From: Patescibacteria group bacterium
Lineage (GTDB): Bacteria > Patescibacteriota > Patescibacteriia > Veblenbacterales > UBA10138
Assembly: GCA_018817715.1 (NCBI GenBank)
Contig: JAHITT010000006.1
Location: 11,147 to 75,146 of the forward strand
Reading direction: 5' to 3'
DNA length: 64,000 nucleotides
Made by a program: the position numbers and the translations under genes. How positions within the stretch are numbered: position 1 is the stretch's first letter; every line of letters begins with the position of its first letter. Below, one piece after another: positions 13,034 through 28,461 of this stretch. The notes under the pieces were generated by a model. The model made no database searches and was not told the origin of the DNA. It worked only from the letters and a program-made list of their open reading frames with translations.

Positions 13034-14551
13034 ATGAAAAATGATAAGTTTATTATCGCTCGGGAATACGTAGTAAGCTTATTCCCGATTTTTCAGTTAG
13101 CGGATAGTTTTGGTGATTCTATTAAAAAAATAATTGGTACTTCTATTGGTGAATTTGCTGGTCGTCTAGAAGGGCATTCTATATGGTGGATAGCCAGGGA
13201 AAAGGGTTGGTTTCTTGGTCATCAGGCAGTTGTTAGTAGAATAAAAAACAATCCCCAATGGTTTAATAACATTTTGCAGCAAATAGAACAACAAGGTGGA
13301 GCTTTAGGTAGGTTATCTAAGAATTTAGCTAAGGGTCGCCTGGATAAAATTTCTAATCGGGAATTAGCTAATCGTTACTTGAATTTTTCTCAAAAGAATA
13401 CTCATTTATACGACTTAGGTTTGGTTTGTTCTTTGTTGGATTATCAGAATAATACTTATTTAAGTGATTCGGTTAATGGTATTTTATCTAAGAAATTATT
13501 AATTAAAAATATAAGCGAAGTTTTTACTCTGCTGACCACTTCTAGCCGGTTATGGCCCGATAAAGAACAGGAATTAAAATTGGTTGGAATCTATAAAAAA
13601 ATTATAACTCGTAAAATTTTAAAAGAACTTTTATTAGCCAAGAGTAGTTCAGATTTTTTATTAGATCTTTGGAAGATTGATAAGGATATTTATCATCTTT
13701 TGGTTAAACATGGTGATCGCTATGCTTATTTGACCTATGTTTATGAGGGGCCAGCTGTTGGTTTGGATTTTTATATTGATATTATGAAGAACTGGTTACT
13801 TAATAAATTAAAACCAGTTGATCTAAAGAAAAAGCAAACTAAGGATAAAAATAAATTAATTAAGGAACAAAAAAAATTATTAAGTAAGTTAAAATTATCA
13901 GCCGAAGAATTAGTTTTGATTAAATTTGCTCAGAAGGTTTCTTTTGTTAAGCCTTATCGTCGATTATTACAAAGCCAAGCTTATTATTATTTTGAACCTG
14001 TTTTGGCAGAAGTAGCTCGTCGATTGAATTTAACTTTAAGGCAAGTTCGTTATTTATTACCTCAGGAGGTCCAGAAAGGTTTATTAGTAGGTCGAGTATC
14101 GGTTGATTTAGTTAATACTAGAATTAAATCATGTGTCTATATTAACTTTAATGGTCAGAAGAGATTATTAATTGGTCGGTCAGCAATTAATTTTTGGAAA
14201 ACTGTTAAAAAAGAGCAAGAATTTATTAATCTTAAAAAAATTAAAGGTTCAACCGCTTATCCAGGAAAAATAAGCGGCCGGGTAGTTTTAGTTAATATGC
14301 CGGCTGATATGGTTAATATGAAATTAGGTGATATTTTAGTATCTTCAGCCACTAGCCCTAATCTTATGCCAGCTATTAGAAAGGCTGGTGCCATAGTGAC
14401 TGATGAAGGTGGTATAACCTGTCATGCAGCGATAGTCAGCCGAGAATTAAAAATACCTTGTTTGATTGGCACTAAAATAGCCACCAAAGTTTTAAAAACA
14501 GGTGACAAGGTTTTAGTTAATGCTACTGCAGGCGTGGTTTATAAAAAATAA
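13034..14551 (+). CDS. PEP-utilizing-enzyme mobile (phospho-His) domain protein, paralog 1. N-terminal alpha-rich domain of unknown function.
   Basis: C-terminal about 85 aa ...PGKISGRVVLV...GDILVSSATSPNLMPAIRKAGAIVTDEGGITCHAAIVSRELKIPCLIGTK is a PF00391-type swivelling His domain. It has the same architecture as the rifampin-phosphotransferase C-terminal part. Confidence 0.8.
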   Translation: MKNDKFIIAREYVVSLFPIFQLADSFGDSIKKIIGTSIGEFAGRLEGHSIWWIAREKGWFLGHQAVVSRIKNNPQWFNNILQQIEQQGGALGRLSKNLAKGRLDKISNRELANRYLNFSQKNTHLYDLGLVCSLLDYQNNTYLSDSVNGILSKKLLIKNISEVFTLLTTSSRLWPDKEQELKLVGIYKKIITRKILKELLLAKSSSDFLLDLWKIDKDIYHLLVKHGDRYAYLTYVYEGPAVGLDFYIDIMKNWLLNKLKPVDLKKKQTKDKNKLIKEQKKLLSKLKLSAEELVLIKFAQKVSFVKPYRRLLQSQAYYYFEPVLAEVARRLNLTLRQVRYLLPQEVQKGLLVGRVSVDLVNTRIKSCVYINFNGQKRLLIGRSAINFWKTVKKEQEFINLKKIKGSTAYPGKISGRVVLVNMPADMVNMKLGDILVSSATSPNLMPAIRKAGAIVTDEGGITCHAAIVSRELKIPCLIGTKIATKVLKTGDKVLVNATAGVVYKK

Positions 14552-14553
14552 TT

Positions 14554-16101
14554 ATGGCTATTATTTGGTGTAAAAATTTTGAAATACCTAGAGTGGATTT
14601 AAATATCTGTAGTGAATCGGCTATAGGTTTTCATACCTTACAATCCAAAACAGTCGGCCGGAATATAATTAACGAATCAATTTGGGTTTTTAAAAATTTG
14701 GACAATATTGGAACATATTTTTTCAAAAGACAATTAAGAAAAATAATAGAAAAAACCTTAAGTATTATTATAAATCAACCTGGCAAAATTGATATTCTTC
14801 ACCAAAAAACTATTCTTTATAATAAAAAATATTATATTTTTGCGGAAAAAATAAGAAAATTATCCTTAAAAAAGTTAACTACTAAACAACTTTTGTCTTG
14901 GCATAAAAAGCTTTTCTATTGGCAATATTTAAGCCATGGTTATAGTTTACCTACTACCTGGTTTGTGGATTCTGATGGTGAGGATCTTACCAAACATCTT
15001 ACAAGATTAATAAAAATGCGGATTGAGGAATTAGGTTTAACTTTATCATCGGCCGTAGTTTTTAGTAAATTAACAACTCCCACCAAACAGTCTTTGGCTC
15101 AGAAGGAGGAGTTAGAATCTTTAGCTATTTTAAAGTTAATAAAGAAACATAAATCTTTGGCTAAGAAATTATCTTATTTAAAAAAAACTACGAGCCTGTT
15201 AAGTTGGCTGGAGAGCTGCCCGAAAGCGTTAAATAAAGTTATTATAAAACATTATAAAAAATGGTGTTGGTTTCCTTATACTTATTTAGGGCCCGCTTAC
15301 TCCTTAGATTATTATTTGCAGGTTTGGCAGGGATTATTAAGAGAAAGGGTAAATTCAGATAGAGAGATTGCTAAAATAATAAGCCAATCAAAAAAGGCTC
15401 AAACAAAAAGAAGCCAGTTATTAAAAATTTTGAAGCCAGGTAACCACTTAAAACACCTGTTAATCATAGCTTCTGATATTGTTTGGCTTAAGGGTTATCG
15501 TAAGGATTGTTATTATCATGGTTTTTATGTTTTGGATATCTTATTAGCGGAGATTGCCCGGCGAACTAATTTATCTTTGTTACAAGTAAAATATTTATTA
15601 CCAGAAGAGTTGCCACTTTTATTGTTAGATAATAATAAAGATTGGGCGGATCTAGCCAATCAGCGGATGAAATTTTCTGTTTTATATCATAAAGATAGCC
15701 AGGTTAAAATTTTAGTAGGTAAAAAGGCTAAACAGTTTTTAAGTAAACGAAAATTTGAAAAAATATCAATTAAAAAAACTAAAGAAATATTGGGTACCTG
15801 CGCTTGTCCGGGTCAAGTTAGTGGTCGAGTTTGCTTAGTTAATATTCCAGCTGATATGGTAAAAATGAAAAAAGGGGACATTATGGTGTCTCACACTACT
15901 TACCCTGCTTTGATACCAGCCATGAAACTAGCGGCTGGTTTAATTACAGAAGATGGTGGGGTAACTTGCCATGCGGCTATAGTAGCCAGAGAGCTACAAA
16001 TTCCTTGTGTAGTTGGTACCAAAATAGCAGCTCAAGTTTTAAAAGATGGTGATAGAGTTGAAGTTCAAGCGGAGCAGGGGATAATTAAAGTCATTAAATA
16101 A
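14554..16101 (+). CDS. PEP-utilizing mobile-domain protein, paralog 2
   Basis: Same C-terminal motif (GGVTCHAAIVARELQIPCVVGTK). It shares the internal paralog motifs Y-x-Y-x-GP and K-x-YR-x(15)-LAE-x-ARR with the neighbouring genes. 3 bp intergenic gap. Confidence 0.8.
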   Translation: MAIIWCKNFEIPRVDLNICSESAIGFHTLQSKTVGRNIINESIWVFKNLDNIGTYFFKRQLRKIIEKTLSIIINQPGKIDILHQKTILYNKKYYIFAEKIRKLSLKKLTTKQLLSWHKKLFYWQYLSHGYSLPTTWFVDSDGEDLTKHLTRLIKMRIEELGLTLSSAVVFSKLTTPTKQSLAQKEELESLAILKLIKKHKSLAKKLSYLKKTTSLLSWLESCPKALNKVIIKHYKKWCWFPYTYLGPAYSLDYYLQVWQGLLRERVNSDREIAKIISQSKKAQTKRSQLLKILKPGNHLKHLLIIASDIVWLKGYRKDCYYHGFYVLDILLAEIARRTNLSLLQVKYLLPEELPLLLLDNNKDWADLANQRMKFSVLYHKDSQVKILVGKKAKQFLSKRKFEKISIKKTKEILGTCACPGQVSGRVCLVNIPADMVKMKKGDIMVSHTTYPALIPAMKLAAGLITEDGGVTCHAAIVARELQIPCVVGTKIAAQVLKDGDRVEVQAEQGIIKVIK

Positions 16102-16105
16102 AGAT

Positions 16106-17632
16106 ATGGCTAAATCTAAAATAAATTGGTTTTTGATAAATGAAAATTATGGGGCTAATTTATGTCCTTATATTTTTCATTTTGATGCTGATTATCACTT
16201 ATTCAAAAAAATATTGGGTCGGGGTATGAATTATCAAGGAGTAGGCACGGCCAAAGGTTTTTTGCGTCAAACTTATGATTTAACAGATTATAATAATTTT
16301 GCTGCTTTTGTATTTTTAAAATTAAAAAATGACAAAAAGTTTGCCCGAAAAATGCTTAAGAATATTTTTAAGGTCACTGGAAGTTTTCTTAAATTTAACA
16401 GGGAACTTTTGTCTCAAGATTTAAAAGATCTTACCGCCAGACAGTTAGTTGGTTTATTTAGAAAATTTTATGATAAGTTTGGCTTAATGAGTGCTTGGAG
16501 CGTGCCATTTGCTTTTACTGAGTACGGTACACCTTTATGGTCTAACAGTTTGTTAGAATATATTAACAGTAAAAAATTGTCGGTTGGAATGAGCGTTCAA
16601 GAAGTTTATCAATTATTAGTAGATACCAATAAAAAAACCTTTACAGCTTTAGAAAAAGAAAGTCTGTTAAGGTTAGCGACTATGGTAGTTAAGTCAAAAG
16701 GACTTAAAAAAGTTTTTAATCAGCCCATAAGCCAGATGAAGAAAATTTTGCAATCTGATTATCCATTATTTTATAAATACTTACACACCCATTATGTTAG
16801 TTTTAAATGGATAAATTTTGGCTTCGAAGGGCCAGTTTTAGATGAATTTTATTTTTTATCAGTTATTAAGGACTGGGTTTTTAATAAGAAGCCAGTTGAA
16901 GAGACAGTCAAGCGCAAAAAATACTTAGCTAGCTTAAAAAGTCGGCAGAATCAATTAATCAAAAAATTAAATATAGACAAAGAACATCAGTGGATGCTTT
17001 GGGTGGTTAGGGAATTTAGTTATCAGAAGGCTTATCGTAAAGATGTAGAATATCACAGCTATTATACTTATGATTTTTTATTAGCCGAATTAGCCAGACG
17101 TTTTGGTATGGCGGTTGATCAGGCACATTATTTATTAATGCCAGAAATAAAGGATATCTTATTGGGTAAGAAAAAAGTTAACATTAATGAACTTAATAAA
17201 AGGATGGAAAATAATTTTTATGTAGTTGTAAAAGGTAAGCCTAAATTGTTAGTTGGTCAGTCGGCGGCTAGGTTTGTTAAATTAATAAAAAAAAGAGATA
17301 AATCTAATAATACTAACAATTTATCTGGGCAATGTGCTTGTCCGGGTAAATATAAGGGAAGAATAAAAGTTATAAAAAATAAATCGGATTATACTAAGTT
17401 TAAAAAAGGTGATATTTTGGTAAGTTATGCCACTAATCCTAACATGGTGTCTTTAATGAAAATGGCTGGAGCTATAATAACGGACGAAGGTGGTGTCACC
17501 TGCCACGCCGCCATTGTTTCCAGAGAGTTGGGAGTTCCTTGTGTAATAGGCACCAGATTTGCCACCCAGGTTTTTAAGGATAATGATTTGGTGGAGGTGG
17601 ATGCCGTTAAGGGTACTGTTAAGAAAATTTAA
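16106..17632 (+). CDS. PEP-utilizing mobile-domain protein, paralog 3
   Basis: GGVTCHAAIVSRELGVPCVIGTR C-terminus and paralog motifs (FGFEGP, KAYRKD...LAELARR). Confidence 0.8.
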   Translation: MAKSKINWFLINENYGANLCPYIFHFDADYHLFKKILGRGMNYQGVGTAKGFLRQTYDLTDYNNFAAFVFLKLKNDKKFARKMLKNIFKVTGSFLKFNRELLSQDLKDLTARQLVGLFRKFYDKFGLMSAWSVPFAFTEYGTPLWSNSLLEYINSKKLSVGMSVQEVYQLLVDTNKKTFTALEKESLLRLATMVVKSKGLKKVFNQPISQMKKILQSDYPLFYKYLHTHYVSFKWINFGFEGPVLDEFYFLSVIKDWVFNKKPVEETVKRKKYLASLKSRQNQLIKKLNIDKEHQWMLWVVREFSYQKAYRKDVEYHSYYTYDFLLAELARRFGMAVDQAHYLLMPEIKDILLGKKKVNINELNKRMENNFYVVVKGKPKLLVGQSAARFVKLIKKRDKSNNTNNLSGQCACPGKYKGRIKVIKNKSDYTKFKKGDILVSYATNPNMVSLMKMAGAIITDEGGVTCHAAIVSRELGVPCVIGTRFATQVFKDNDLVEVDAVKGTVKKI

Positions 17633-17633
17633 T

Positions 17634-18848
17634 ATGCCTAAATACATAAAGCAATTAACCAGAGAGAATACTTTATTGGATAGGGCTTTTAGGACTATAG
17701 CTTATGCCAAAAGCCTTCCGGAAATAGGTCGGGCTAAAATAAAAAAAAGCCCCATAGTTGGTTTTGGTCGGGTGACTTCTTTGTATTATGATCCAGTGGA
17801 TTACAAAAAACAACAATCTATAATAATGAAAGAATTTTCTGGACAGAATATTAAGGTAATGTCCTATGAAATCATTAAGTATTTAGAGAAGGGTTATATT
17901 TGGGCCAAAAAAGTAAGTAACAACAGATTAACTAAAGCTGATTTGATTGATTTGATAAAAGATTTTAATTATTGCCACGCTCATGCCAGGGGAGCTATTG
18001 TTTATGGTTATTGGGGAGAACCAGTTATAACAAAATTATTAAAAAACAGTCTTAAAGTTAAAAAAGATAAATTAGATGAGATAGTGTCTGTTTTATCAAC
18101 TCCCCATAAAATAGCCGGCCCTTTAAACAAACTACATAAAACTTCTTCGTTTTTGTATCAAAAAAGAAACGAATTGATTAAATCTTTAAAGTTGACAGGT
18201 AGACAAAATGAATTAGTTGAGATTTTATCTTGGTTTACTTTATTTTATGAAATGGGCGAGAGGGTGTCTGGTTCTATATATAGTTTGCTTTTGAAAAAAA
18301 TTAACCAAATTTTAAAAAAAGATAAAATATATAAGGATATTGATTGGTACGATCCTCAATCTTTAATTACATATTTATCTAAAGGGAAAGCATTATCAAA
18401 GAAGGAATTAAGTAGCAGAAAAGTTTGTTATATATTATTTGTTAAAAAGGATGGGCTAAGAGTTATCAGCGGGCAGTCCGCTTTAAGACAATATAATAAA
18501 ATTTTCAAAGAAAAATTTAATACTAACGTTAGTTTGTTAAAAGGCACAGTGGCTTGCGCTGGCAATGCTAAAGGAAAAATTAAAATAGTGATAACCAAAC
18601 AAGATCAAGCGAAATTTAAACCAGGTGATATTTTAATTTCTACTATGACCACACCTAATTTAATGGGTGCCGTTAAAAAGGCTGCGGCTATAGTAACCGA
18701 TGAGGGTGGTATGACTGCTCACGCTGCCATAATTAGCCGAGAATTAAATATTCCTTGTTTGGTAGGTACTAAAGTAGCTACCAAAGTGTTTAAAGATGGA
18801 GATTTGGTGGAAGTAGATGCTAATAATGGTATAATTAAGAAAATTTAG
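17634..18848 (+). CDS. PEP-utilizing mobile-domain protein, paralog 4 (shorter, most divergent)
   Basis: The ATG at 17634 lies 2 nt after the paralog 3 stop, whereas the track ORF starts inside the upstream gene. C-terminus GGMTAHAAIISRELNIPCLVGTK. The N-domain is about 100 aa shorter than in the other paralogs. Confidence 0.7.
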   Translation: MPKYIKQLTRENTLLDRAFRTIAYAKSLPEIGRAKIKKSPIVGFGRVTSLYYDPVDYKKQQSIIMKEFSGQNIKVMSYEIIKYLEKGYIWAKKVSNNRLTKADLIDLIKDFNYCHAHARGAIVYGYWGEPVITKLLKNSLKVKKDKLDEIVSVLSTPHKIAGPLNKLHKTSSFLYQKRNELIKSLKLTGRQNELVEILSWFTLFYEMGERVSGSIYSLLLKKINQILKKDKIYKDIDWYDPQSLITYLSKGKALSKKELSSRKVCYILFVKKDGLRVISGQSALRQYNKIFKEKFNTNVSLLKGTVACAGNAKGKIKIVITKQDQAKFKPGDILISTMTTPNLMGAVKKAAAIVTDEGGMTAHAAIISRELNIPCLVGTKVATKVFKDGDLVEVDANNGIIKKI

Positions 18849-18852
18849 TCTT

Positions 18853-20379
18853 ATGTCTAAAAAATCATTAAACAATAAAGATGTTTGGATGTTGGCCGAA
18901 GATATTCCGGATATAGATTTATTTTTTGCTCAAATTTGGTTGTCGGCTTTTGTTAATGATATGTCTAAGTCAGTCGGGACTAATTATCAAGAAGTGATGT
19001 GTGTGTTTAAGGGTACCAACATCAAGTTTTATTATAAACAAAAAGACTCAGAAAGGTTTTCTAATCATGTTTTTAATTTAATTAAAAAAAGTCCGGCCTT
19101 TGGAGAAAAAATTAACAAACAAATCAAATTACATACGGATGGGTTGGTGGCTTTGGCGGAAGAAGTCAGGAAAATTAATCTTAAAAAATTAACTAATAAA
19201 GAATTGTGGCAGATTTGGCAAAAACATGATGATATCCATACAGAACTTTATATTTGGGGTTGGTTACCTAATGTTACAGATATGTTTCATAGTAACTTCA
19301 CTCATTATCTGCAATCTTATTTAAACAGTTGTGGGGTTGAAGAAGATTTAATTAATGAATATTTGGTAGTATTAACTAATCCTTCGGCCAAAAGCGTTAT
19401 AAATCAGGAAAGGGAGGAATTCTTAAAATTAGTTGAAGAAATAAAAAAGGTTAAGGCTTTTAAAAAACTTCTTAAATTATCGCCAAGCCAGTTTATAAAA
19501 AAATTACCACTTAGTCGCCGGGTGTTGCTACAGCGCCATTGGGAAAAGTGGCATCATTTAAAATATAATTTTATTGGACCTAAAGTAACAACCTTGGAAG
19601 AATATGCTGAAGAGATACAAAAATTATTATTAAGCGGGATTAATCCTTATAATTTATTAAAGCAAGAAGTAGAAAAAAGAGTTTTGTCTGTTAAAGAAAA
19701 AAATAAATTATTGGCTAAAATTAAACCAGATAAAAAGCATCTGGCCTTGTTTGAATTATGGGGCCATTTTATGTTGACTAAATTTTATAGGCGAAATGGT
19801 CAAATAAGAGCTGTAGCCATATTTAATAATTTATTAAAAGAAACAGCTAGAAGATTGGGTATTTCTTTATTACAAGTTAGGTTGATGTTGAATAGTCAGG
19901 TTAAACAAGGATTGCTTAATAAGAAGGTTAATAAAAAAACGCTTAAAAAACAGAGTCAGTTGGCTGTTTATTGGAGTGCTAAAAACCGGGAATATTTATA
20001 TATTGGAAATAAAGCACAAAAATTTATTAAGACTATACCGCAGGATGGTAATCATGAGGTCGCCGAGCTTAAAGGGCAGTGTGGTAGTTTAGGTAAAGCT
20101 AGTGGTACAGTTAAGTTAATTTTTAGACCGCGTGATATTCCTAAAATGTCTAAAGGCGACATATTGGTTTCGGCGGCTACTGATCCTGATATTGTGCCGG
20201 CTATGAAATTGGCGGGGGCTATTGTAACGGATCAAGGTGGTGTTACAGCTCATGCCGCCATTGTGGCGCGGGAATTAGGTATTCCGTGTTTAATTGGTAC
20301 CAAAATAGCCACTAAAGTTTTTAAAGATGGAGATAGGGTAGAGGTAGACGCTACCAAAGGGGTGGTTAAAAAGTTATAA
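18853..20379 (+). CDS. PEP-utilizing mobile-domain protein, paralog 5
   Basis: GGVTAHAAIVARELGIPCLIGTK C-terminus. Paralog motifs HLKYNFIGP and KFYRRN...LKETARRLG. Confidence 0.8.
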   Translation: MSKKSLNNKDVWMLAEDIPDIDLFFAQIWLSAFVNDMSKSVGTNYQEVMCVFKGTNIKFYYKQKDSERFSNHVFNLIKKSPAFGEKINKQIKLHTDGLVALAEEVRKINLKKLTNKELWQIWQKHDDIHTELYIWGWLPNVTDMFHSNFTHYLQSYLNSCGVEEDLINEYLVVLTNPSAKSVINQEREEFLKLVEEIKKVKAFKKLLKLSPSQFIKKLPLSRRVLLQRHWEKWHHLKYNFIGPKVTTLEEYAEEIQKLLLSGINPYNLLKQEVEKRVLSVKEKNKLLAKIKPDKKHLALFELWGHFMLTKFYRRNGQIRAVAIFNNLLKETARRLGISLLQVRLMLNSQVKQGLLNKKVNKKTLKKQSQLAVYWSAKNREYLYIGNKAQKFIKTIPQDGNHEVAELKGQCGSLGKASGTVKLIFRPRDIPKMSKGDILVSAATDPDIVPAMKLAGAIVTDQGGVTAHAAIVARELGIPCLIGTKIATKVFKDGDRVEVDATKGVVKKL

Positions 20380-20386
20380 TTTATTT

Positions 20387-21937
20387 ATGAAAAAGCAGCA
20401 AAATATTTATACTTTTAGTAATATTAAAAAAGTTAGGTGGGGGGTGCTGGAAGAAAATCAACCCATTCATCTTTTTCCAGTAATGTATCCTTGTTGGTGT
20501 GGTATTGTTAAGGATGTGGGGAAGATTTTAGGTAAACCACAAACTAACATCATCAACTTCAATCATTATGATAAAAGTACAATATTCATTGATCATGATG
20601 AGTGGAATAAATTAGGCCTTTTTACTTTGCGTAAAATTTTACGAGATCCTAAGTGGGGATTTTACATAAGTAAAAAAATTATCAAACTTTCTGATATTTT
20701 GACTAAGTTTACTAGTCAAAAAATACATAAAGTAGATTTAACCAAAAAAACTAATCAGCAATTATATCATTTGTACAAGGAGTATCTAGATAAAGATGTT
20801 GTTGCATATAATTATGCCGCCATACCTGTGTATTTGGATTTATATAAACCTCATTTAACAACATATTTATTAAAATATTTAGATAAGCTTATATCTAAAT
20901 TAGATTATAAAATGACAGCTCGGGAGTGTTTTGTTGGTTTAACTATGCCAGTTGGGTTATCTAAGGTACAAAACGAAGAACTTGATTTATATAAATTAAC
21001 CATCAAAATAAAATCATTTATCAAGAACAATAAATTACCAAAGCTTTCTCAATTATCTGGGAGGAGTTTAAATTTATTCAAAAAGCACACGGATAAATAT
21101 AGATACTTGGGTTATAATTGGGAAGGGCCGGCCTTTTCTGATTATTATTTTTGGAAAAGATTAGAAAATTTATTTAAAGATAAAGTCACTCCACAAACAA
21201 AAATTAAGGATTTTTTTGCCAATAAGAAAAAAGGTATAAGGCTAGCTGAAAAAATAAAGAAGGACTTACATATTGATAATAAACATAATAAGTTGTTGGA
21301 GCTGACTAAACATATAATTTATTCAAAAGAGTATCGAAAAATGGCTTTTGTACAGTCGTATTATGAGGTGGAGAAATTATTAAAGGAGATAGCTGATAGA
21401 TTGTCATTAAGTTTGGATGAAGTTAGGGTGAGCTTATTAACTGAAGTCAGATTAATGTTAACCAGCAAGCTAACCAGACCAAAAGAACTATCAGATAGAA
21501 TAGAGGGGCATTTATTTGTGGTTTTGAGCCAAAAATTACCTGGTCGGGTTTTTACGGATAATCTTTATTTAAAGACCAAGGAATATTTATTAAAGCGACA
21601 GGATTTACACGAAATTAATTATTTCCACGGGCAGACAGCTTGTTTAGGTAAAGCTGAGGGTCTAGTTAAAATAATTAATTCAGTTAAGGATATTGGAAAA
21701 ATGAGAAAAGGGGATATTTTAGTTTCTACTCAGACAAATCCTGATTTAGTACCAGCCATGCGTAAAGCAGCCGCTATAGTGACTGATTTAGGTGGTATAA
21801 CCTGCCACGCAGCTATTGTTTCCAGAGAATTAGGAATACCTTGTGTTATTGGTACTAAAGTGGCTACCAAAGTGCTTAAAGACGATGATAGGGTAGTGGT
21901 GGATGCTAGTAGAGGCGAGATTAAAAAGATTAATTAA
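20387..21937 (+). CDS. PEP-utilizing mobile-domain protein, paralog 6
   Basis: GGITCHAAIVSRELGIPCVIGTK C-terminus. Paralog motifs YLGYNWEGP and KEYRKM...LKEIADRL. Confidence 0.8.
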   Translation: MKKQQNIYTFSNIKKVRWGVLEENQPIHLFPVMYPCWCGIVKDVGKILGKPQTNIINFNHYDKSTIFIDHDEWNKLGLFTLRKILRDPKWGFYISKKIIKLSDILTKFTSQKIHKVDLTKKTNQQLYHLYKEYLDKDVVAYNYAAIPVYLDLYKPHLTTYLLKYLDKLISKLDYKMTARECFVGLTMPVGLSKVQNEELDLYKLTIKIKSFIKNNKLPKLSQLSGRSLNLFKKHTDKYRYLGYNWEGPAFSDYYFWKRLENLFKDKVTPQTKIKDFFANKKKGIRLAEKIKKDLHIDNKHNKLLELTKHIIYSKEYRKMAFVQSYYEVEKLLKEIADRLSLSLDEVRVSLLTEVRLMLTSKLTRPKELSDRIEGHLFVVLSQKLPGRVFTDNLYLKTKEYLLKRQDLHEINYFHGQTACLGKAEGLVKIINSVKDIGKMRKGDILVSTQTNPDLVPAMRKAAAIVTDLGGITCHAAIVSRELGIPCVIGTKVATKVLKDDDRVVVDASRGEIKKIN

Positions 21938-21941
21938 ATAT

Positions 21942-23474
21942 ATGAAGTATCAGTTATTACATCAAGAAACTTCTGTTACACCTCTAACTTTGGGTATGAA
22001 TCACCGGGGATTTCATCATCGCCTGCATACGAAATATACTAGACCTTTTTATTTTAAAGATAGCGTAATTGTTTATAAAAATTATAAGGTTGATTGGTAT
22101 GGTGATATAGATAATTTTTGTGAACTGGGTCAAAAAGTTATTGATAATGTTAAAAAAGACAAAACATTTAGCAAGCGTTTGTTATTAGATGTGGTTAAGA
22201 TTGGACAAGAGTTAGATGAATTGGATAGCATAATAATTAGTGAAAATTTTGCACGATTGACAAAACTAAATTTGCTAAATCAATTTAAAAAATTATTTAA
22301 ATTGTCTTATGATATTTGTGATTTGGGTGCAGTAGCAGTTTATCCTGATTTAAGACATTATAAATTATCAACATTACTTAAGAATATTATTAAGGAAAAA
22401 ATAGTTAAATACAATTTACCTAGAAAAACTAATGACTACTTTTCAATATTAATTACACCTACAATTACTGGTTTGGTGCAGCGGGAAAAGAATGTCATAC
22501 AAGAATTAGCAATTGAAATTCAGAGAGATAAAGCGCTAAAAAATGATTGGCTTAGGTTGAAAGCTAAAGACGTTTTAAAGAAACAAGCAGGCCACCTGCA
22601 CAAAACTATTGATAGTTTATATAAATTATATAGTAATTATCGATGGTCAGCTTTTGGGCAATTAGGGCCAAGTAAAACATTGGATGATTATATCGTTGAC
22701 ATAAAAAGCGAAATAAAAAATCCAATTTTAAAAAAACAAATATTAGAAGCTAAAAAACATTTAAATCAGATATTTAAACTTCAAAATTTATATTATAAAG
22801 AACTTCGTTTGACTAAAGTAGAAATTAACCTGTTTAAAGCGGCTCGAGATTTTAGTGAAAACAAGGTTTATAGATTTGATATTTTACTTAAAACTTGGTT
22901 AGCACTTGATTTGCTTTTGAGAGAAATTGCCAACAGAACAAAATATACGGTTAATGATTTAAGATTTATGTCTCCAGAGGAGATTGTTAGTTTATTAACT
23001 GGTCGGAAAATAATTCCAATTAGTATAATTAAAAATAGGCAAAAATTTTGTTTGACACTTATTAAGAATAATTCAATTATCCATTTAACAGGGGAGCAAG
23101 CCAAATCATACCTACGCCATAATATAGAAGCGGAAAATATTCAAAATAACATTAAGACATTGCATGGTAGTGTGGCTTATATGGGTCGGGTTAGCGGACG
23201 AGTAAAAATAGTTAATAGTCCTAAGGATATTAGTAAGGTTAAAAAAGGAGATATTTTAGTTTCTACTCAGACAAATCCAGATTTATTGCCGGCCATGCGA
23301 AAAGCTGGAGCTTTTGTAACTGATGTAGGTGGTATAACCTCCCATGCTGCTATTGTGGCTAGGGAATTAAAGAAACCTTGTATAATAGGTACAAAGATTG
23401 CTAGTAAAATATTTAAAGATGGTGATAGAGTAGATGTAGATGCTATTAAAGGTAATGTAACATTAATTAAATAA
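21942..23474 (+). CDS. PEP-utilizing mobile-domain protein, paralog 7
   Basis: Start moved to the ATG at 21942, after the TAA at 21935-21937. C-terminus GGITSHAAIVARELKKPCIIGTK, with the canonical TSH form of the catalytic His motif. Confidence 0.75.
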   Translation: MKYQLLHQETSVTPLTLGMNHRGFHHRLHTKYTRPFYFKDSVIVYKNYKVDWYGDIDNFCELGQKVIDNVKKDKTFSKRLLLDVVKIGQELDELDSIIISENFARLTKLNLLNQFKKLFKLSYDICDLGAVAVYPDLRHYKLSTLLKNIIKEKIVKYNLPRKTNDYFSILITPTITGLVQREKNVIQELAIEIQRDKALKNDWLRLKAKDVLKKQAGHLHKTIDSLYKLYSNYRWSAFGQLGPSKTLDDYIVDIKSEIKNPILKKQILEAKKHLNQIFKLQNLYYKELRLTKVEINLFKAARDFSENKVYRFDILLKTWLALDLLLREIANRTKYTVNDLRFMSPEEIVSLLTGRKIIPISIIKNRQKFCLTLIKNNSIIHLTGEQAKSYLRHNIEAENIQNNIKTLHGSVAYMGRVSGRVKIVNSPKDISKVKKGDILVSTQTNPDLLPAMRKAGAFVTDVGGITSHAAIVARELKKPCIIGTKIASKIFKDGDRVDVDAIKGNVTLIK

Positions 23475-23476
23475 AT

Positions 23477-24082
23477 ATGATTAAGCTTATTATTTTTGAT
23501 TTGTATGGTCTTATATTAAGTTCGGGTTATCCAGATACTTCCAAATATCTGGCTAAGAAGTTTGGTGGAGATTGGCGGGATTATCAGGCCATAATATATA
23601 AAAAGTATTTTAACCAGGCGGCGGTACGACAAATAACTCAAAAACAGGCTTGGGTTTTGGCGGCTAAAGAATTAAAGTTACCGATTTCTTGGCAGGAGTT
23701 AAGAAAAATACATTATAAACTAATGACCTTGGATAAGCGGTTGGTTAAGTTAGATAAGGAATTAAACAAAAAAGGTTATATTACTTTAGTGCTTTCCAAG
23801 AATACCCGTAGTCAATTGGCCGATAACTGTAAGCGTTTTGGAATTAAAAAAATATTTAAAAATGTGATTAATACTTGGGAACTTAATTTACCTAAAGCCA
23901 GTAAAAAAACATTGGCCTTGGTTTTAAAGCGTTTTAAGGTTAAGCCGGAAGAGGTTATTTATGCGGATGATCAAAAGGCTAATTTAGTAGACGCTAAAGA
24001 AATGGGCATTAAAACAATTTTTGTTAAGAATTATCAGCAGTTTAAAAAAGAATTGGATGGTTATCTTTCTTATGATAAATAA
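23477..24082 (+). CDS. HAD-superfamily hydrolase-like protein (non-canonical motif I)
   Basis: N-terminal LIIFDLYGLIL is a HAD motif-I position but reads D-L-Y rather than DxD. C-terminal IYADDQKANLVDAKEMGIKTIFV is HAD motif-IV-like. 201 aa, embedded in the paralog array. Confidence 0.5.
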   Translation: MIKLIIFDLYGLILSSGYPDTSKYLAKKFGGDWRDYQAIIYKKYFNQAAVRQITQKQAWVLAAKELKLPISWQELRKIHYKLMTLDKRLVKLDKELNKKGYITLVLSKNTRSQLADNCKRFGIKKIFKNVINTWELNLPKASKKTLALVLKRFKVKPEEVIYADDQKANLVDAKEMGIKTIFVKNYQQFKKELDGYLSYDK

Positions 24083-24107
24083 ATTTAAAGAAAAAGGTTG
24101 GCGTTTA

Positions 24108-25568
24108 ATGTCTCAACGACAAAGGTTAAGCCCTTTCCCTAACTATATGTCTATGGAAGCTATGACGGGTTTAGTTAAGGAGTATGTTGGTGAAAATATA
24201 GATTGGCTGGTTTTATTTTTTGAAGACAGGATAATGAATGGGTTTAGTCCGTCTAAATCTTTTTTTGCTTCAGCTAATGATATTGTGAATAGGCTGGAGA
24301 ATAATCCTGGTATTTATGCTGATTTAATTAAAAAGCAGAATTATTGGGGAAAAAAATTGGTTAAACACGCTAAATTGAGTTTTAATAAAGTAGATAGTAC
24401 AAGTACGGCTCGAGATTTGTATAATTTTTGGATGAATTTTGAACGTATTTATAAACAGGTTTATGCTACTTATGGATCAGTTTGGATGATAGAGGATGTT
24501 TTTAATAATCGTTTATTACAGATAGTTAAAGAAAGGATTAGTAATGAAGTAAAATCTGTGGAGTTGCTTAATCTTTTGACATTACAACCAAAAGCTATGG
24601 TAGCGAGATTGGAAAAACAGGCTTTGTTAGAAGTGGCTGTTAAAATAGGTATTCGTTCTGGTTGGCGGCAGCAAGTTTTAAAAGGCAATTTTAAATCATT
24701 TGATAAAGGTTTAGTTGCTTTGATAGTTAAACACGAACGTGATTATTTTTGGGTAACTAGGGATTATGAGGATCCTATTTTGGACAAAGAAAGGATTATC
24801 AGCAAACTAAAAGACGTTTTACGAGAGAATTATAAAACTAACTTATTAGCCATGAAAAAAGAGTTGGTTAAATGGCGACAGCAGCAAGATTTTTTGACAA
24901 AGAAATTGCAATTGACTAATAAGGAAAAAAAGTTATTCTCGGCTATGCAGGATGTAGCTTACTTGAAGGAATTACGTAAGCATTATGTTTCAGAATCTTT
25001 ATATTATTTTGATAGGGTCTTATTGGAAATCGGCCGCCGTAGTTGTTTAAGTATTAAACAAGTTAGATTTTTAAAAACAGAAGACTTAAGCAGTGTTTTA
25101 TTTAGTAAAAAAGATTTTAGTAAAACAATTAATGATAGAATAAAATTATCTGTTTGGATAAGTCATCAAGGTAAAACAAAAGTAATAACTGGTAAAAAGG
25201 CTGAAATTTTAAAGAAAAAATTTATTCAAAAACCAAAAAATCTTTTGGAATTTATAGGTACCCCGGTGAGTCCTGGCAAAGCCCGTGGTCCAGTTAAAAT
25301 AGTATTGAATCCAGATGAGTGTTCTAAGGTTAAAAAAGGGGATATTATCGTTAGTATTCAAGTCGTGCCTAGTTTTTCAGCAGCCATTCAACGAGCGGCT
25401 GGTTTAATTTGCGATGGTGGACATGGCATTACTACTCATCCTGCTATTTTAGCTAGAGAAGCTAAAATTCCAGCAATTATTCAAACTAGGTTTGCTCGAG
25501 AAGTTTTAAAAGATGGTGATATAGTGGAGGTTGATGGTTATAAAGGTATGGCAAGAAAAATAAAATAA
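24108..25568 (+). CDS. PEP-utilizing mobile-domain protein, paralog 8 (divergent)
   Basis: The ATG at 24108 lies after the HAD gene stop at 24082. C-terminus GGHGITTHPAILAREAKIPAIIQTR with the His retained. Paralog motif KELRKH...LLEIGRR. Confidence 0.7.
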   Translation: MSQRQRLSPFPNYMSMEAMTGLVKEYVGENIDWLVLFFEDRIMNGFSPSKSFFASANDIVNRLENNPGIYADLIKKQNYWGKKLVKHAKLSFNKVDSTSTARDLYNFWMNFERIYKQVYATYGSVWMIEDVFNNRLLQIVKERISNEVKSVELLNLLTLQPKAMVARLEKQALLEVAVKIGIRSGWRQQVLKGNFKSFDKGLVALIVKHERDYFWVTRDYEDPILDKERIISKLKDVLRENYKTNLLAMKKELVKWRQQQDFLTKKLQLTNKEKKLFSAMQDVAYLKELRKHYVSESLYYFDRVLLEIGRRSCLSIKQVRFLKTEDLSSVLFSKKDFSKTINDRIKLSVWISHQGKTKVITGKKAEILKKKFIQKPKNLLEFIGTPVSPGKARGPVKIVLNPDECSKVKKGDIIVSIQVVPSFSAAIQRAAGLICDGGHGITTHPAILAREAKIPAIIQTRFAREVLKDGDIVEVDGYKGMARKIK

Positions 25569-25596
25569 ACCCTCTTTAAGAGGGTTTATTTTATTA
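25567..25596 (+). terminator. rho-independent terminator hairpin (likely bidirectional)
   Basis: AAACCCTC/GAGGGTTT 8 bp stem followed by ATTTTATT. It lies between the convergent ends of paralog 8 (+) and the histidine phosphatase gene (-). Confidence 0.55.
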
Positions 25597-25610
25597 ATAG
25601 CAGTTGTTAA

Positions 25611-26474
25611 CTAAATTTCAGTTGCTATTTTTTCTATATTTTTACCTACGGGCTTAGCTTTTTTCTTATTTTGTCCATAAAAATCCAGCCTCACCCCTTC
25701 GGCATTTTCCACTTCGCCAACTTTTTCTAAAGGAATATTTAATTCATCAGCTACTATTAAGGAAGTCATTGAAGCGTGGCTATTGGCAATGTAAACTATT
25801 CTTTTTTCTTGACCTTTGTTAGACAACCAATCAGCTATTTTTTCCACTTTAGCCATATCAATATTTTTTCTTTTTAACATTTGGCTTTTAGTTTCAACTG
25901 CTGTAGGAATTTCATCATCTGGTGTTAAAGCCCAAGCCACAATTTCATCTTTGGCTCCTAATTTTTCTTGGTAAGAAGTATCTCCCAATTTTTTTCTAAA
26001 ATCTGGCTCATGTTCAATACCTTGAATACCTTTTAATCTTTTTTCTACACCCGGCCCAGCTTCGGTTGGTATATTTTCTCCTTTCCATTCATAGGCGCTC
26101 TTTGGTAAGTCTATTTGGTCAGGCCTAGCGCCCAGTTCAATTAAAGTATCATTCATTACCCAGTCTTGCTCGCAAGTGCGATCAGTTTTTGAATCACGAA
26201 TAAATAACTTTATTTTATCTAAGGATTTTTGTAAAACTTCGGCATAGGCTTGTTTGTTGTTCCAATCTTTAAAATCCGATTGTTCGTCGCTTATAATCTG
26301 TTTGGCAATATTAGTAATGGTTTCTTTTACTTGTTCACGACCCTTATCAGTTAAACCTCGTTTGGGATTAGTTTTATCTTTACCAGATTCGCCGTGACGG
26401 ATAAGATAAACAGTTATATTTGGTTGTTCTTTTAATACTTCTTTGGATTCTGTAAATAATTGTTTTTCATTCAT
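25611..26474 (-). CDS. histidine phosphatase superfamily (PGAM/SixA-like) protein
   Basis: N-terminal YLIRHGESGKD (RHG catalytic motif) and a downstream ANSHASM second-His motif. 287 aa. Confidence 0.6.
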   Translation of the reverse strand: MNEKQLFTESKEVLKEQPNITVYLIRHGESGKDKTNPKRGLTDKGREQVKETITNIAKQIISDEQSDFKDWNNKQAYAEVLQKSLDKIKLFIRDSKTDRTCEQDWVMNDTLIELGARPDQIDLPKSAYEWKGENIPTEAGPGVEKRLKGIQGIEHEPDFRKKLGDTSYQEKLGAKDEIVAWALTPDDEIPTAVETKSQMLKRKNIDMAKVEKIADWLSNKGQEKRIVYIANSHASMTSLIVADELNIPLEKVGEVENAEGVRLDFYGQNKKKAKPVGKNIEKIATEI

Positions 26475-26521
26475 ATAGTTTGATGAGTATTAACTAAGTA
26501 CTTAAATATTAGCACATTTTA

Positions 26522-26558
26522 GTAAAAAAATAGAAGGTTCCAATGTTTTGGAACCTTC
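26522..26558 (-). terminator. rho-independent terminator for the upstream minus-strand gene
   Basis: Perfect 11 bp stem GAAGGTTCCAA/TTGGAACCTTC with a 4 nt loop, followed on the minus strand by TATTTTTTTAC. Confidence 0.6.
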
Positions 26559-26584
26559 GAAGGATTGTTTGTAAATTTAGTTAT

Positions 26585-27298
26585 TTATTTTGTAAATATT
26601 TTTTCCAGATGTTTTACTTCATCCGGTAGACGAAATTCTTCAACAGATACCGGAACAGCAATTCCATTATTAACGTCGAAAGTGTATATAAGGCCTTCGC
26701 AAGTTGATAAGGGACCGCCAATTGAACCAACAGATATGTTTTGCGGATAAACTTCTTTTACATCGTATGTTAGAGCTTTAATTAAAGAGCCAACAGCTTC
26801 TACAGCTACTCCGTGGCGGCAGCAAAGTATATTTGTGTTTTCTGTGCATCCTGCGGCATAAGCTAACATAGCTTGTACCTGTTCTGAGGCTCGTTTAAAC
26901 ACATAATCGCGTATTTCGCCGGGTTGGGTTAGGAAAACATGTTCCACTGTCATAGAGTTTTCTTTTTCCAATTGTTTGGCAATTTTAATTAAATTTTTGG
27001 CGTTGGGGTCTGAACCGATGTCGTCAAAAATAAGATCGGTTTTTACATCAAAGCTATGTCCAAGAGTGTCAAGGATAATTCGGGCTAGTTTCCAAGCGCG
27101 GGGTTGAGGACTAGTAATAGCTTTTTGAAACTTCACGCCAGAAAATTTTAGAATAGAAGCAACTATGTAGCTCGTCATCAAGCCGTATAAAGTAGGATTT
27201 TGATCCTTCTTTATTTTGTCTTGAAGGGTAGCATTTTGATCTTCAGCTGCTTTTTGTCTTTCGTAGTGACGGAAATCATAAATTTTTACAGTTGCCAT
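26585..27298 (-). CDS. hypothetical protein
   Basis: 237 aa ORF with an AAGGTG Shine-Dalgarno 6 nt upstream of the ATG. No confident family assignment. A mid-protein CCRHG segment was noted but is not diagnostic. Confidence 0.4.
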   Translation of the reverse strand: MATVKIYDFRHYERQKAAEDQNATLQDKIKKDQNPTLYGLMTSYIVASILKFSGVKFQKAITSPQPRAWKLARIILDTLGHSFDVKTDLIFDDIGSDPNAKNLIKIAKQLEKENSMTVEHVFLTQPGEIRDYVFKRASEQVQAMLAYAAGCTENTNILCCRHGVAVEAVGSLIKALTYDVKEVYPQNISVGSIGGPLSTCEGLIYTFDVNNGIAVPVSVEEFRLPDEVKHLEKIFTK

Positions 27299-27336
27299 TA
27301 GTGCACCTTTTGTTTTTTTGTGGGTTTTTGTTTATT

Positions 27337-27395
27337 AAGTTTAAGATTCGTCTGACGACGCATTTTTTACACGCTTTCAGATGAATCTTAAACTT
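27337..27395. promoter_or_regulatory. 19 bp inverted repeat (one mismatch) with a 21 nt spacer in a divergent intergenic region
   Basis: AAGTTTAAGATTCGTCTGA ... TCAGATGAATCTTAAACTT lies between the divergently transcribed hypothetical gene (-) and the PPDK_N gene (+). Confidence 0.4.
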
Positions 27396-27513
27396 GTTTG
27401 TTAAGGTACTATAAAACAGTCTATAATAGCGCATTTTTGGGTTTTTGTCAATGGTAGCTTTTATTTTATGGCTAGGTTAAAATAAAAATAGATTAATATT
27501 TAAAAAGATTTTT

Positions 27514-28461
27514 ATGAAAATAACTTTTAGTTTACCTTTTTCCAAAATTAGCAAAAAAGACGTTAGCTTAGCTGGTGGTAAGGGTGCTAGTTTAGGCGAA
27601 ATGGCCAAGGCCGGCATTCCGGTGCCGCCGGGTTTTGTGGTACTGGCCACAGCTTTTAATAGGTTTTTACAGGAAACGGATTTAGAGCAAGATATTCAAG
27701 CCCAGCTTAATAAAGTTAATTATCACGATGTCAATTCGGTTGATAGATATTCTAATGTTATAAGGGCAATGATTACCAAAGCTAAAATGCCTAAAGATTT
27801 GCAAGAAGAAATAGTAAAAGAGTTTAAAAAATTAAAAGTTAAATATGTGGCAGTTCGTTCTTCAGCCACAGCCGAAGATTCTAGTTCAGCTTCGTGGGCG
27901 GGGGAGTTAGAAACTTATTTAAATACCACTGACAAGGATTTGTTAAAGAGAGTTAAGGACTGCTGGTCTTCGCTGTTTACACCACGGGCTATTTTTTATC
28001 GGCATGAAAAAAAATTGCATAAAGTTAAAGTGGCGGTGGCGGTGGTTGTGCAGGCCATGGTGCAGTCGGAAATTTCTGGCATTGCTTTTACAGTTCATCC
28101 TGTTACCAAAGATAAAAAACAAATGATTATTGAAGCTGGTTATGGTTTGGGGGAATCTATTGTTTCTGGACAAATAACTCCCGATGCTTATGTAGTCAGT
28201 AAAAAGGATTTATCTTTAATAGATATAAATATTGCTGAACAAACTAAAAAATTAATAGGTTTACCTGGTGGAGGAAATAAGTGGATGGGTTTGAATAAAA
28301 AAGACGGTAGTAAGCAAAAATTAACTGGCAAACAAATAATAGAATTATCTAAAATTTGTTTGCATATAGAAAAGCATTATAAATTTCCCTGTGATATAGA
28401 ATGGGCTTTGGTAAAAAATAAATTTTATATAACCCAATCTAGACCTATTACCACTTTATAA
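27514..28461 (+). CDS. stand-alone PEP-synthase/PPDK N-terminal ATP-grasp domain protein (PPDK_N-like)
   Basis: Collinear with the E. coli PEP synthase N-terminus: GGKGASLGEM...GIPVPPGF, VRSSATAEDSSSASWAGELETYLN, DIEWALVKNKFYITQSRP. The ORF stops where the mobile His domain would begin. Confidence 0.85.
   Translation: MKITFSLPFSKISKKDVSLAGGKGASLGEMAKAGIPVPPGFVVLATAFNRFLQETDLEQDIQAQLNKVNYHDVNSVDRYSNVIRAMITKAKMPKDLQEEIVKEFKKLKVKYVAVRSSATAEDSSSASWAGELETYLNTTDKDLLKRVKDCWSSLFTPRAIFYRHEKKLHKVKVAVAVVVQAMVQSEISGIAFTVHPVTKDKKQMIIEAGYGLGESIVSGQITPDAYVVSKKDLSLIDINIAEQTKKLIGLPGGGNKWMGLNKKDGSKQKLTGKQIIELSKICLHIEKHYKFPCDIEWALVKNKFYITQSRPITTL

Follow-up and report, generated by a model that had tools for sequence, protein, structure and literature searches.

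An array of RPH-like swivel-domain proteins with a single stand-alone ATP-grasp gene in Patescibacteria suggests a small-molecule dikinase system with a shared ATP-binding subunit

PpsAB is a phenylphosphate synthase. Together with HpeHI and CreHI, it represents the characterized two-component dikinases, in which a separate ATP-grasp subunit loads the histidine of an RPH-like subunit (PMC12167813). We found both kinds of polypeptide, a separate PPDK_N-like protein and subunits made of an RPH-like domain with a C-terminal swivel domain, in a 64,000-nucleotide stretch of Patescibacteria DNA (the window). However, whereas each known system is a 1:1 pair that Actinobacteria or Proteobacteria encode in an operon for aromatic catabolism, this Patescibacteria locus has eight specificity subunits (3 to 10 elsewhere) beside one ATP-grasp gene and lacks catabolic genes. 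The initial annotation knew of no described system with this arrangement. Regarding the split itself, that claim does not hold, given PpsAB, CreHI, and HpeHI; nonetheless, the putative sharing of one ATP-grasp partner among several subunits (eight here), an arrangement found in many related bacteria, appears to be undescribed, and the novelty lies in the many-to-one arrangement, the lineage, and the scale of about 4,500 sequence clusters. We consider a two-component RPH-type small-molecule dikinase system with a shared ATP-binding subunit the most plausible reading of the locus, with a probability of roughly 60%.

Table 1 lists the features of the region. The eight paralogs, p1 to p8, are all intact, are encoded on the plus strand, and share 25 to 34% pairwise identity. 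They had been described as eight tandem genes; the number stands, but the run is interrupted between p7 and p8 by a HAD hydrolase gene, which shares 11 bp with the beginning of p8. This conserved partner had been overlooked in the initial annotation. The source of the array is the tiny genome of a Patescibacteria bacterium. At the DNA level, repeats among the paralogs are recognizable only in the swivel-coding ends of about 300 nt (64 to 74% identity, with a period of about 1.5 kb); thus, the duplications are old. PADLOC models of known anti-phage defense systems gave no match for p1, p4, p8, the ATP-grasp protein, the HAD protein, HP1, or HP2.

TABLE 1 Features of the paralog array, the ATP-grasp gene, and the interval between them
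Feature	Position in window	Strand	Description
p1	13034..14551	+	505 aa; RPH-like substrate-binding domain and swivel; His464; K306-P-Y-R309-R310
p2	14554..16101	+	515 aa; KGYRK motif; orthogroup in 7 loci, window included
p3	16106..17632	+	508 aa; KAYRK motif; residues 80-506 align to positions 450-888 of the RPH-like NCBIfam model NF004881
p4	17634..18848	+	404 aa, short; alternative start 17601; N-domain reduced
p5	18853..20379	+	508 aa; KFYRR motif; orthogroup in 11 loci, window included
p6	20387..21937	+	516 aa; KEYRK motif
p7	21942..23474	+	510 aa; alternative start 21903; KVYRF motif
HAD-family hydrolase	23477..24082	+	201 aa; Pfam HAD_2, 1e-14; embedded between p7 and p8
p8	24072..25568	+	498 aa; divergent; GGHGITTHPAIL; KELRK motif
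Hairpin, 17-bp stem, T-rich flanks	25559..25595		Terminator-like; between convergent p8 and HP1
HP1	25611..26474	-	Histidine-phosphatase-superfamily-like; RHGES motif; Pfam His_Phos_1, E 1.6e-4
HP2	26585..27298	-	Second histidine-phosphatase-like protein; Pfam His_Phos_1, E 4e-6
Stand-alone ATP-grasp (PPDK_N)	27514..28461	+	315 aa; Pfam PPDK_N, 1e-97; proposed ATP-dependent loader of swivel histidines

A Pfam scan of p1 to p8 placed PF00391 (PEP-utilizers) at the C terminus of every ORF, with E values of 6e-16 to 9e-27, and found no other domain. The histidine of the G-x-T-x-H motif is retained in all eight, in agreement with the C-terminal PEP-utilizing swivel domain initially recognized; the motif had been written too strictly, however, as its IP is replaced by VP in p3 and by KP in p7, and p8 reads GGHGITTHPAIL, with an insertion that is kept in the p8 orthologs at loci L006 and L018. 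The swivel domains of the array retain, at the second position ahead of the His, the Thr typical of PEP synthase, which we count among their differences from HpeHI, CreHI, and PpsAB. The ATP-grasp protein consists of PPDK_N only: as had been proposed, it is collinear with the N terminus of PEP synthase, aligning to positions 8 to 337 of the 798-position model, and then ends. In this alignment, the GGKG, VAVRSSATAED, DIEWA, and QSRPIT blocks are retained, and its PDB matches are PEP synthase (4e-67) and RPH (3e-60). A scan of the window revealed neither a swivel gene beyond p1 to p8 nor a second PPDK_N gene; within the window, the ATP-grasp domain is therefore encoded separately and once, as originally suggested.

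PEP synthase and PPDK share the G-G-x-T-x-H motif with the array proteins but differ from them in domain order. Since PEP synthase models give the best scores for both the swivel and the ATP-grasp domains, the genes could in principle be remnants of a PEP synthase or PPDK gene, whether as fragments or as pseudogenes. Nevertheless, every ORF is intact, none of the nine proteins contains the PEP-utilizers_C TIM barrel, whose place is taken by an RPH-like helical domain, and the orthogroups persist across candidate phyla. Moreover, the N-domain is predicted to adopt the RPH-like fold with a pLDDT above 90, and by itself it matches about 4,500 clusters at 50% identity. These observations effectively refute decay, and the N-domains are not TIM-barrel fragments.

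Consistent with the initial description of a lysine-rich, all-alpha domain, the N-domains contain 12 to 15% Lys (pI 9.7 to 9.9) and are mostly helical. RPH is the only PDB match that covers N-domain plus swivel, for the long and the short paralogs alike; the profile match spans residues 496 to 866 of RPH-Lm (E = 5e-31), and structure-based identity is 15 to 16%. In RPH, block 9 (R666-E-Y-P-K670) touches the transferred phosphate (PMC4844700). This block aligns to K306-P-Y-R309-R310 of p1, such that R666 corresponds to K306 and K670 to R310, and basic residues are kept at the phosphate-contact positions of this block. Among 115 diverse family members, K306 and R309 are each conserved in 98% and K/R310 in 88%, while the Glu of block 9 is not conserved and other N-domain positions vary; across the eight paralogs, only four N-domain residues are invariant, Met1 excluded. 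To judge from these alignments, a conserved K-x-Y-R-[KR] motif within a variable remainder would fit conserved chemistry with varied substrates. On the other hand, p4 lacks the motif and has invariant residues of its own, and p7 has F in the last place; therefore, one chemistry need not be common to all eight.

RPH differs from the array proteins in combining ATP-grasp, RIF-binding, and swivel domains in a single chain, and scores against the RPH equivalog model NF041857 (50 to 72 bits; cutoff, 999 bits) do not reach the rifamycin-specificity threshold. The wider RPH-like dikinase family includes PRK06241 proteins and PigC/RedH/HapC. Fused three-domain relatives, such as P0116 and P0189, exist. 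PRK08296-type NCBIfam models of about 600 aa, which we take to represent PpsA/HpeH-type proteins, match the array proteins in the swivel only, at 44 to 103 bits against cutoffs of 578 to 730. Judged through these models, the array proteins fall outside the HpeH/CreH/PpsA clade, whose subunits of about 600 aa are about 45% identical to one another. Because the N-domain alignments extend further with single-chain proteins of the RPH, PigC, and PRK06241 types, the split may have arisen independently.

Several paralogs give long NCBIfam alignments to PigC and RedH, as exemplified by p3, in which residues 188 to 506 align to PigC positions 546 to 880. The array proteins might thus be PigC/RedH-type ATP-dependent activating or condensing enzymes that phosphorylate transiently while a metabolite is built or remodeled, with the phosphate later removed by the HAD protein or by elimination. 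The conserved, phosphatase-like HAD partner is in line with such a role, and the phosphorylation step of the Hpe pathway precedes a carboxylation and a dephosphorylation (PMC12167813). However, the PigC and RedH scores, at 57 to 76 bits, are a small fraction of the cutoffs of 1300 to 1350, PPDK_N and HAD genes alone recur beside the arrays, with no biosynthetic or catabolic genes among their recurrent neighbors, and eight to ten parallel activating enzymes without partner enzymes fit a single pathway poorly. We regard this explanation as unlikely.

Arrays of 3 to 10 paralogs occur in many Patescibacteria MAGs, often adjoining one ATP-grasp gene and a HAD gene. Exactly one PPDK_N-only gene adjoins the arrays at loci L002, L006 to L012, and L019, and L031 has seven paralogs with one loader; L002, with three paralogs, displays the same frr-RseP-...-Rrf2-SOD synteny as the window. 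The orthogroups are strongly conserved between genomes, which upholds the view that the modules have been multiplied and diversified. Loader-array adjacency is common but not universal: the flanks fetched around several arrays, such as the 10-paralog array of L014, contained no ATP-grasp gene, and at L026 to L030, which encode close homologs of the stand-alone ATP-grasp protein, no swivel gene lies within 10 kb on each side. In the window, the ATP-grasp gene and the array are separate transcription units, with the terminator-like hairpin and the minus-strand genes HP1 and HP2 between them, which argues against a shared loader. Such separation, like the ATP-grasp genes that lie away from any array, would fit a reading of the paralogs as loader-independent transphosphorylases that move phosphate between small molecules via the His without ATP, the ATP-grasp gene serving one paralog or none. 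Indeed, HpeH without its partner catalyzes phosphotransfer from 4-phosphoacetophenone to acetovanillone (PMC12167813). Yet the ATP-grasp gene immediately adjoins arrays frequently in other genomes, and P0116 and P0189 are single-chain fusions of PPDK_N, an array-type N-domain, and a swivel domain. Without gaps, the ATP-grasp part of P0116 and the stand-alone protein of the window share 59% identity; for the P0116 module and p5, the value is 34% over 444 aa. Loader-independent transfer is thus improbable, and a functional link of the stand-alone ATP-grasp protein to the modules is backed by the fused relative and the recurrent adjacency.

HAD homologs are present at 8 of 20 related loci, and in P0088, found on four contigs, the HAD domain is fused after the module's swivel domain. 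Motif I of the window HAD protein is F-D-L-Y-G, with the nucleophile Asp retained and Asp+2 replaced by Tyr; in our motif alignment, the array HADs never possess the general-acid Asp+2 while retaining the nucleophile Asp and motifs II to IV. A phosphatase-like HAD within a kinase operon makes a simple modify-and-inactivate role not self-evident. For HP1 and HP2, the best NCBIfam match is the phosphohistidine phosphatase SixA, at 22 and 19 bits, respectively. These data raise the possibility of a phosphorelay, in which the swivel His~P is passed to proteins such as the HAD nucleophile Asp and reset by SixA-like phosphatases, in PTS-like signaling or regulation. Swivel-only ORFs of about 107 aa adjoining the ATP-grasp gene in L009, L010, and L012, the HP2-like gene in the same slot of L006, and the EIIA- and HPr-like subdomains described in the RPH substrate domain by Stogios et al. 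(PMC4844700) point in the same direction. Nonetheless, the SixA scores are far below the 74.5-bit cutoff, HP1 and HP2 are not conserved across arrays, and their tie to the dikinase system is uncertain. Furthermore, small molecules are the phosphorylation targets of all characterized relatives, and diversified ligand pockets would be expected to yield just such a domain, one that is large, RPH-like, and variable outside a conserved phosphate-site motif. A protein phosphorelay is accordingly doubtful.

In the dikinase system that we favor, the reaction would follow the course known from HpeHI, CreHI, and PpsAB, from ATP to His to acceptor with release of AMP and Pi (PMC12167813). The ATP-grasp protein would bind ATP and pyrophosphorylate the swivel His of its partner, releasing AMP, after which the gamma-phosphate would leave as Pi. 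The His~P swivel domain would then swing to its own helical RPH-like domain, where the Lys/Arg cluster may position the phosphate for transfer, most likely to a small-molecule hydroxyl. The paralogs would represent anciently diverged specificity subunits, each with a different acceptor and all drawing on the single loader; antibiotics or host metabolites, as initially suggested, are speculative candidates for the substrates. The embedded HAD protein would belong to the same pathway, probably acting on a phosphorylated product or intermediate. By analogy only, such a scheme resembles the PTS (EI to HPr to many EII), in which one general phosphoryl loader serves many modules via phosphohistidine, and the N-terminal domain of EI is homologous to the swivel domain. 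It differs in the proposed use of ATP rather than PEP, in the lack of membrane permeases, and in a many-to-one loading that is here putative.

More tentatively, these loci may constitute a conserved modular cytoplasmic battery in Patescibacteria, with one loader, 3 to 10 or more interchangeable phosphohistidine subunits, and an atypical HAD and possibly phosphohistidine phosphatases as partners. If so, it would reproduce the PTS principle of one EI and many EII components in a soluble form driven by ATP, and ultra-small episymbionts could use it to trap, salvage, or neutralize a panel of host-derived small molecules.

The initial annotation had described eight tandem genes, each ending in a swivelling His domain. 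ORF listing and Pfam scans bore out all eight (p1 to p8; see the table): each is intact, lies on the plus strand, carries a C-terminal PEP-utilizers domain (PF00391, E = 6e-16 to 9e-27) with the catalytic His, and has no second Pfam domain. The run is not unbroken, since a HAD gene sits between p7 and p8, and the array is separated from the ATP-grasp gene by two minus-strand histidine-phosphatase-like genes (HP1 and HP2); that annotation overlooked both the HAD gene and this pair. The window derives from a Patescibacteria metagenome-assembled genome; p1 is a 100% match to NCBI protein KKC17_03145 (Patescibacteria group bacterium), and the other paralogs share 25 to 34% identity with it; their N-terminal parts (N-domains) contain 12 to 15% lysine, with a pI of about 9.8. 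Within the window, DNA similarity of the paralogs is confined to the swivel-coding ends (64 to 74%), indicating that the copies arose long ago and have since been kept up separately, the pattern expected for distinct specificities. Recent tandem amplification was rejected on this ground. The array is a real observation, far beyond chance.

Coordinates of the array genes and of associated features in the window and in related loci
Feature	Locus	Position	Strand	Remarks
p1	Window	13034-14551	+	ORF listing, Pfam PF00391
p2	Window	14554-16101	+	ORF listing, Pfam PF00391
p3	Window	16106-17632	+	ORF listing, Pfam PF00391
p4	Window	17634-18848	+	ORF listing, Pfam PF00391
p5	Window	18853-20379	+	ORF listing, Pfam PF00391
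p6	Window	20387-21937	+	ORF listing, Pfam PF00391
p7	Window	21942-23474	+	ORF listing, Pfam PF00391
HAD	Window	23477-24082		Between p7 and p8
p8	Window	24072-25568	+	ORF listing, Pfam PF00391
Terminator-like hairpin	Window	25559-25595
HP1	Window	25611-26474	-	Weak His_Phos_1
HP2	Window	26585-27298	-	Weak His_Phos_1
Gap with promoter-like sites	Window	27299-27513
ATP-grasp gene	Window	27514-28461	+	315 aa
Kinase/phosphoribosyltransferase cluster	Window	34420-38410
LOG/SLOG-like	Window	38414-39037
HAD	L004	11476-12090
HAD	L005	8271-8861
HAD	L006	16170-16787
HAD	L008	16257-16907
HAD	L011	200-817
HAD	L012	2243-2854
HAD	L014	3070-3705
HAD	L018	4940-5551
Histidine-phosphatase-like	L006	18360-19070	-	Slot equivalent to HP1/HP2
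ATP-grasp gene	L026-L029	about 10001-10942
ATP-grasp gene	L030	3-917
Swivel-only ORF	L009	9307-9627		About 103-107 aa
Swivel-only ORF	L012	12936-13256		About 103-107 aa
Swivel-only ORF	L010	12141-12449		About 103-107 aa
Swivel-only ORF	L023	5404-5964		186 aa
Swivel-only ORF	L024	4456-5016		186 aa
YLVTHGPT ORF	L007	3545-4138	-	~200-aa family
YLVTHGPT ORF	L013	7563-8165	-	~200-aa family
YLVTHGPT ORF	L014	14375-15070	-	~200-aa family

Across the array (window 14001-24000), G+C is 0.30 to 0.33, compared to 0.35 to 0.39 in the flanks, and AT skew is positive, compared to negative in the flanks; our guess is that this anomaly reflects lysine-rich coding rather than foreign origin. GC skew is positive throughout positions 1-64000, with a monotonic rise in cumulative skew, and nearly every gene lies on the plus strand, a pattern that fits a single replichore with a strong leading-strand gene bias. 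Further downstream lies a cluster that could be a salvage module: it encodes two phosphoribosyltransferase-like proteins, a PfkB-family kinase, and an APH-family phosphotransferase, and the gene for a LOG/SLOG-like protein comes next.

Several lines of evidence identify the N-domain. Alignments to the NCBIfam models of the RPH (rifampin phosphotransferase)-like "PEP synthase" (PRK06241 group), PigC/RedH, and PRK05849 extend well past the swivel domain; in p3, for instance, residues 80-506 match positions 450-888 of NF004881. Moreover, a full-length profile of 39 sequences matched residues 496-866 of Listeria RPH (E = 5e-31), and the AlphaFold2 models of p1 (pLDDT 91.9, pTM 0.88) and of the short p4 (pLDDT 93.0, pTM 0.90) are confident. 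The homology was recovered only with this full-length profile or by fold comparison; an N-domain-only profile searched against PDB sequences gave nothing but spurious weak matches. Together, the NCBIfam alignments, the profile match, and the models show that the N-domain is a homolog of the RPH rifampin-binding domain, as initially proposed, rather than a fragment of the TIM barrel of PEP synthase. The chief scenario named against the proposal, in which the N-domains are such fragments, is thereby removed; decayed PEP-synthase pseudogenes were rejected, all ORFs being intact.

In RPH, the Arg, Glu, and Lys of block 9 touch the transferred phosphate and persist in distant clades of the family (Stogios et al., PMC4844700). 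In a profile alignment, K306-P-Y-R309-R310 of p1 aligns with R666-E-Y-P-K670 of RPH. Among 115 diverse family members, K306 is conserved in 98%, R309 in 98%, and K/R310 in 88%, and E326, R330, E345, and R363 are likewise conserved, while most of the N-domain is variable. The K-x-[YL]-R-[KRF] motif is present in seven of the eight window paralogs and missing from p4, which belongs to a tight subfamily (49 to 63% identity) with invariant residues of its own.

The stand-alone gene encodes a PPDK_N ATP-grasp domain alone (Pfam, E = 1e-97), collinear with the first ~337 residues of PEP synthase. Its GGKG, VAVRSSATAED, DIEWA, and QSRPIT blocks are all present; these four carry the Lys/Arg/Asp/Glu/Gln/Arg residues that bind nucleotide and Mg, as defined in Clostridium symbiosum PPDK. 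No further swivel or ATP-grasp gene was found elsewhere in the 64-kb window, in agreement with the proposal that the ATP-grasp domain is encoded once, apart from the modules (N-domain plus swivel). The terminator-like hairpin and the promoter-like sites (consensus matches only) suggest that the ATP-grasp gene is its own transcription unit here, separate from the array.

The initial structural reading largely stands, but its claim that no such arrangement had been described was overstated, since the split already exists in phenylphosphate synthase (PpsAB), CreHI, and HpeHI. In these characterised enzymes, explicitly defined as a two-component dikinase subfamily, an RPH-like ATP-grasp protein serves as the small subunit and the large one combines a RIF-binding-like domain with a swivel domain (PMC12167813). 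The present arrays differ in gene ratio, which is 1:1 in the known enzymes, 8:1 in the window, and 3 to 10 to one elsewhere. Unlike PpsAB, CreHI, and HpeHI, they occur in CPR (Patescibacteria) bacteria, lack catabolic partner genes, and have a conserved atypical HAD partner. Furthermore, the N-domains reach further into the single-chain RPH, PigC, and PRK06241 models than into the ~600-aa PRK08296 models, and the ATP-grasp and swivel domains are nearest to PEP synthase and retain a Thr two positions ahead of the His. Literature searches turned up no account of such arrays from CPR bacteria. A known defence system was also considered and rejected, as a PADLOC scan of p1, p4, p8, the ATP-grasp protein, HAD, HP1, and HP2 gave no match.

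A p1-ortholog alignment was used as seed to retrieve 20 genome loci, so that p1 is present in each by construction. On the evidence, all 20 are Patescibacteria MAGs; nine are labelled as candidate phyla (Veblen-, Doudna-, Buchanan-, and Falkowbacteria) or Patescibacteria group, and the remainder only as "bacterium," "uncultured Gammaproteobacteria," or "Woesearchaeota." Typical Patescibacteria-type arrays occur in L005, L010, L018, and L020 ("uncultured Gammaproteobacteria") and in L021 ("Woesearchaeota archaeon"); they are probably mislabelled, or else contaminated bins. The fetched flanks of the 20 loci hold 1 to 10 paralogs, typically 3 to 6. Counting loci with the window copy included, the N-domain types are p1 (20), p5 (11), p2 (7), p8 (3), p6 (2), and p4 (2), and N-domains form >30 clusters at 150 bits. 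Exactly one PPDK_N-only gene adjoins the array in 9 of the 20 loci and a HAD gene in 8; other recurrent ORF families are of housekeeping type only, in ≤6 loci each. The gene order of the window, frr-RseP-[array]-ATP-grasp-Rrf2-SOD, is shared by L002, where the array has just three paralogs (p1, p2, and p5 types), making the window an expanded form of a conserved locus. A reverse search seeded with the ATP-grasp protein yielded a locus with ATP-grasp followed by seven paralogs (L031), two fused forms, and two contigs on which a paralog immediately precedes the ATP-grasp gene. There are counter-cases. L014, with ten paralogs, has no ATP-grasp gene within the fetched flanks, and L026 to L030, from four metagenome samples, carry a stand-alone ATP-grasp gene 75% identical to that of the window and lack any swivel gene in the 10 kb to each side; L026 to L028 do not differ in gene layout and may represent one place. 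In L026, the neighbours that were checked encode AdoHcy hydrolase, MetK, and T4SS-like proteins (PrgI and TraG). Three otherwise plus-strand arrays also contain a minus-strand ORF ("YLVTHGPT...") with no Pfam match.

A profile search over 1.84 billion representatives, clustered at 50% identity, returned 4,501 N-domain clusters at E ≤1e-3 and 806 at ≤1e-30, mostly of ~500 aa. The names of the 52 homologues listed say nothing of function ("hypothetical protein," "PEP-utilizing enzyme," or "phosphohistidine swiveling domain-containing protein"). Two relatives, P0116 (829 aa) and P0189 (790 aa), join PPDK_N, N-domain, and swivel on one chain; the ATP-grasp part of P0116 is 59% identical, ungapped, to the stand-alone protein of the window, and its module shares 34% identity with p5, a distance no greater than that among the paralogs themselves. 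P0088 (721 aa), found on four contigs from independent samples, fuses a module to HAD. Such fusions, the recurrence of the locus, and the conserved N-domain types speak for joint action of the parts. P0053 (1500 aa) has three modules, P0054 (2309 aa) has four, and P0132 (860 aa) has two N-domains with one swivel; each is a real fusion or gene-calling read-through. Some arrays also contain swivel-only ORFs, in L009 and L012 directly upstream of the ATP-grasp gene, which could be free phosphocarrier domains.

All 10 array-associated HADs aligned retain the nucleophile Asp, the motif II Ser/Thr, the motif III Lys, and the motif IV DD, and all 10 lack the general-acid Asp+2, mostly replaced by Tyr ("FDLYG"). 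Their motif I reads D-x-[Y/N/T/S]-G (FDxYG in most) and resembles that of L-2-haloacid dehalogenases. The HAD could still hydrolyse phosphates whose leaving group is a good one (aryl, enol, acyl, or phosphoramidate), or it could hold a long-lived aspartyl-phosphate. The top NCBIfam match of HP1 and HP2, which are divergent in sequence, is phosphohistidine phosphatase SixA, far under cutoff; they might reset phospho-His. A similar gene occupies the equivalent slot in L006, but the pair is not generally conserved, and we treat it as a lead.

Altogether, a battery of RPH-type dikinase modules of multiple specificities served by a shared ATP-grasp loader is the likeliest mechanism, at a probability of roughly 60%; we infer phosphorylation in trans, the dikinase stoichiometry, and the acceptors. 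The array, whose genes occupy ~13 kb in a genome with a main contig of 531 kb, is a sizeable, conserved investment on the part of ultra-small genomes; it is as yet uncharacterised and elaborates on an enzyme type already known. In our judgement, pipelines naming such genes pyruvate, water dikinase would falsely assign gluconeogenic PEP synthesis to CPR bacteria. If one ATP-grasp subunit truly charges many specificity subunits, dikinases would have a new principle of organisation, and the arrays would offer an orthogonal set of small-molecule phosphotransferases ready for use. The acceptors, once identified, would reveal the targets that these host-dependent bacteria modify, salvage, or detoxify.
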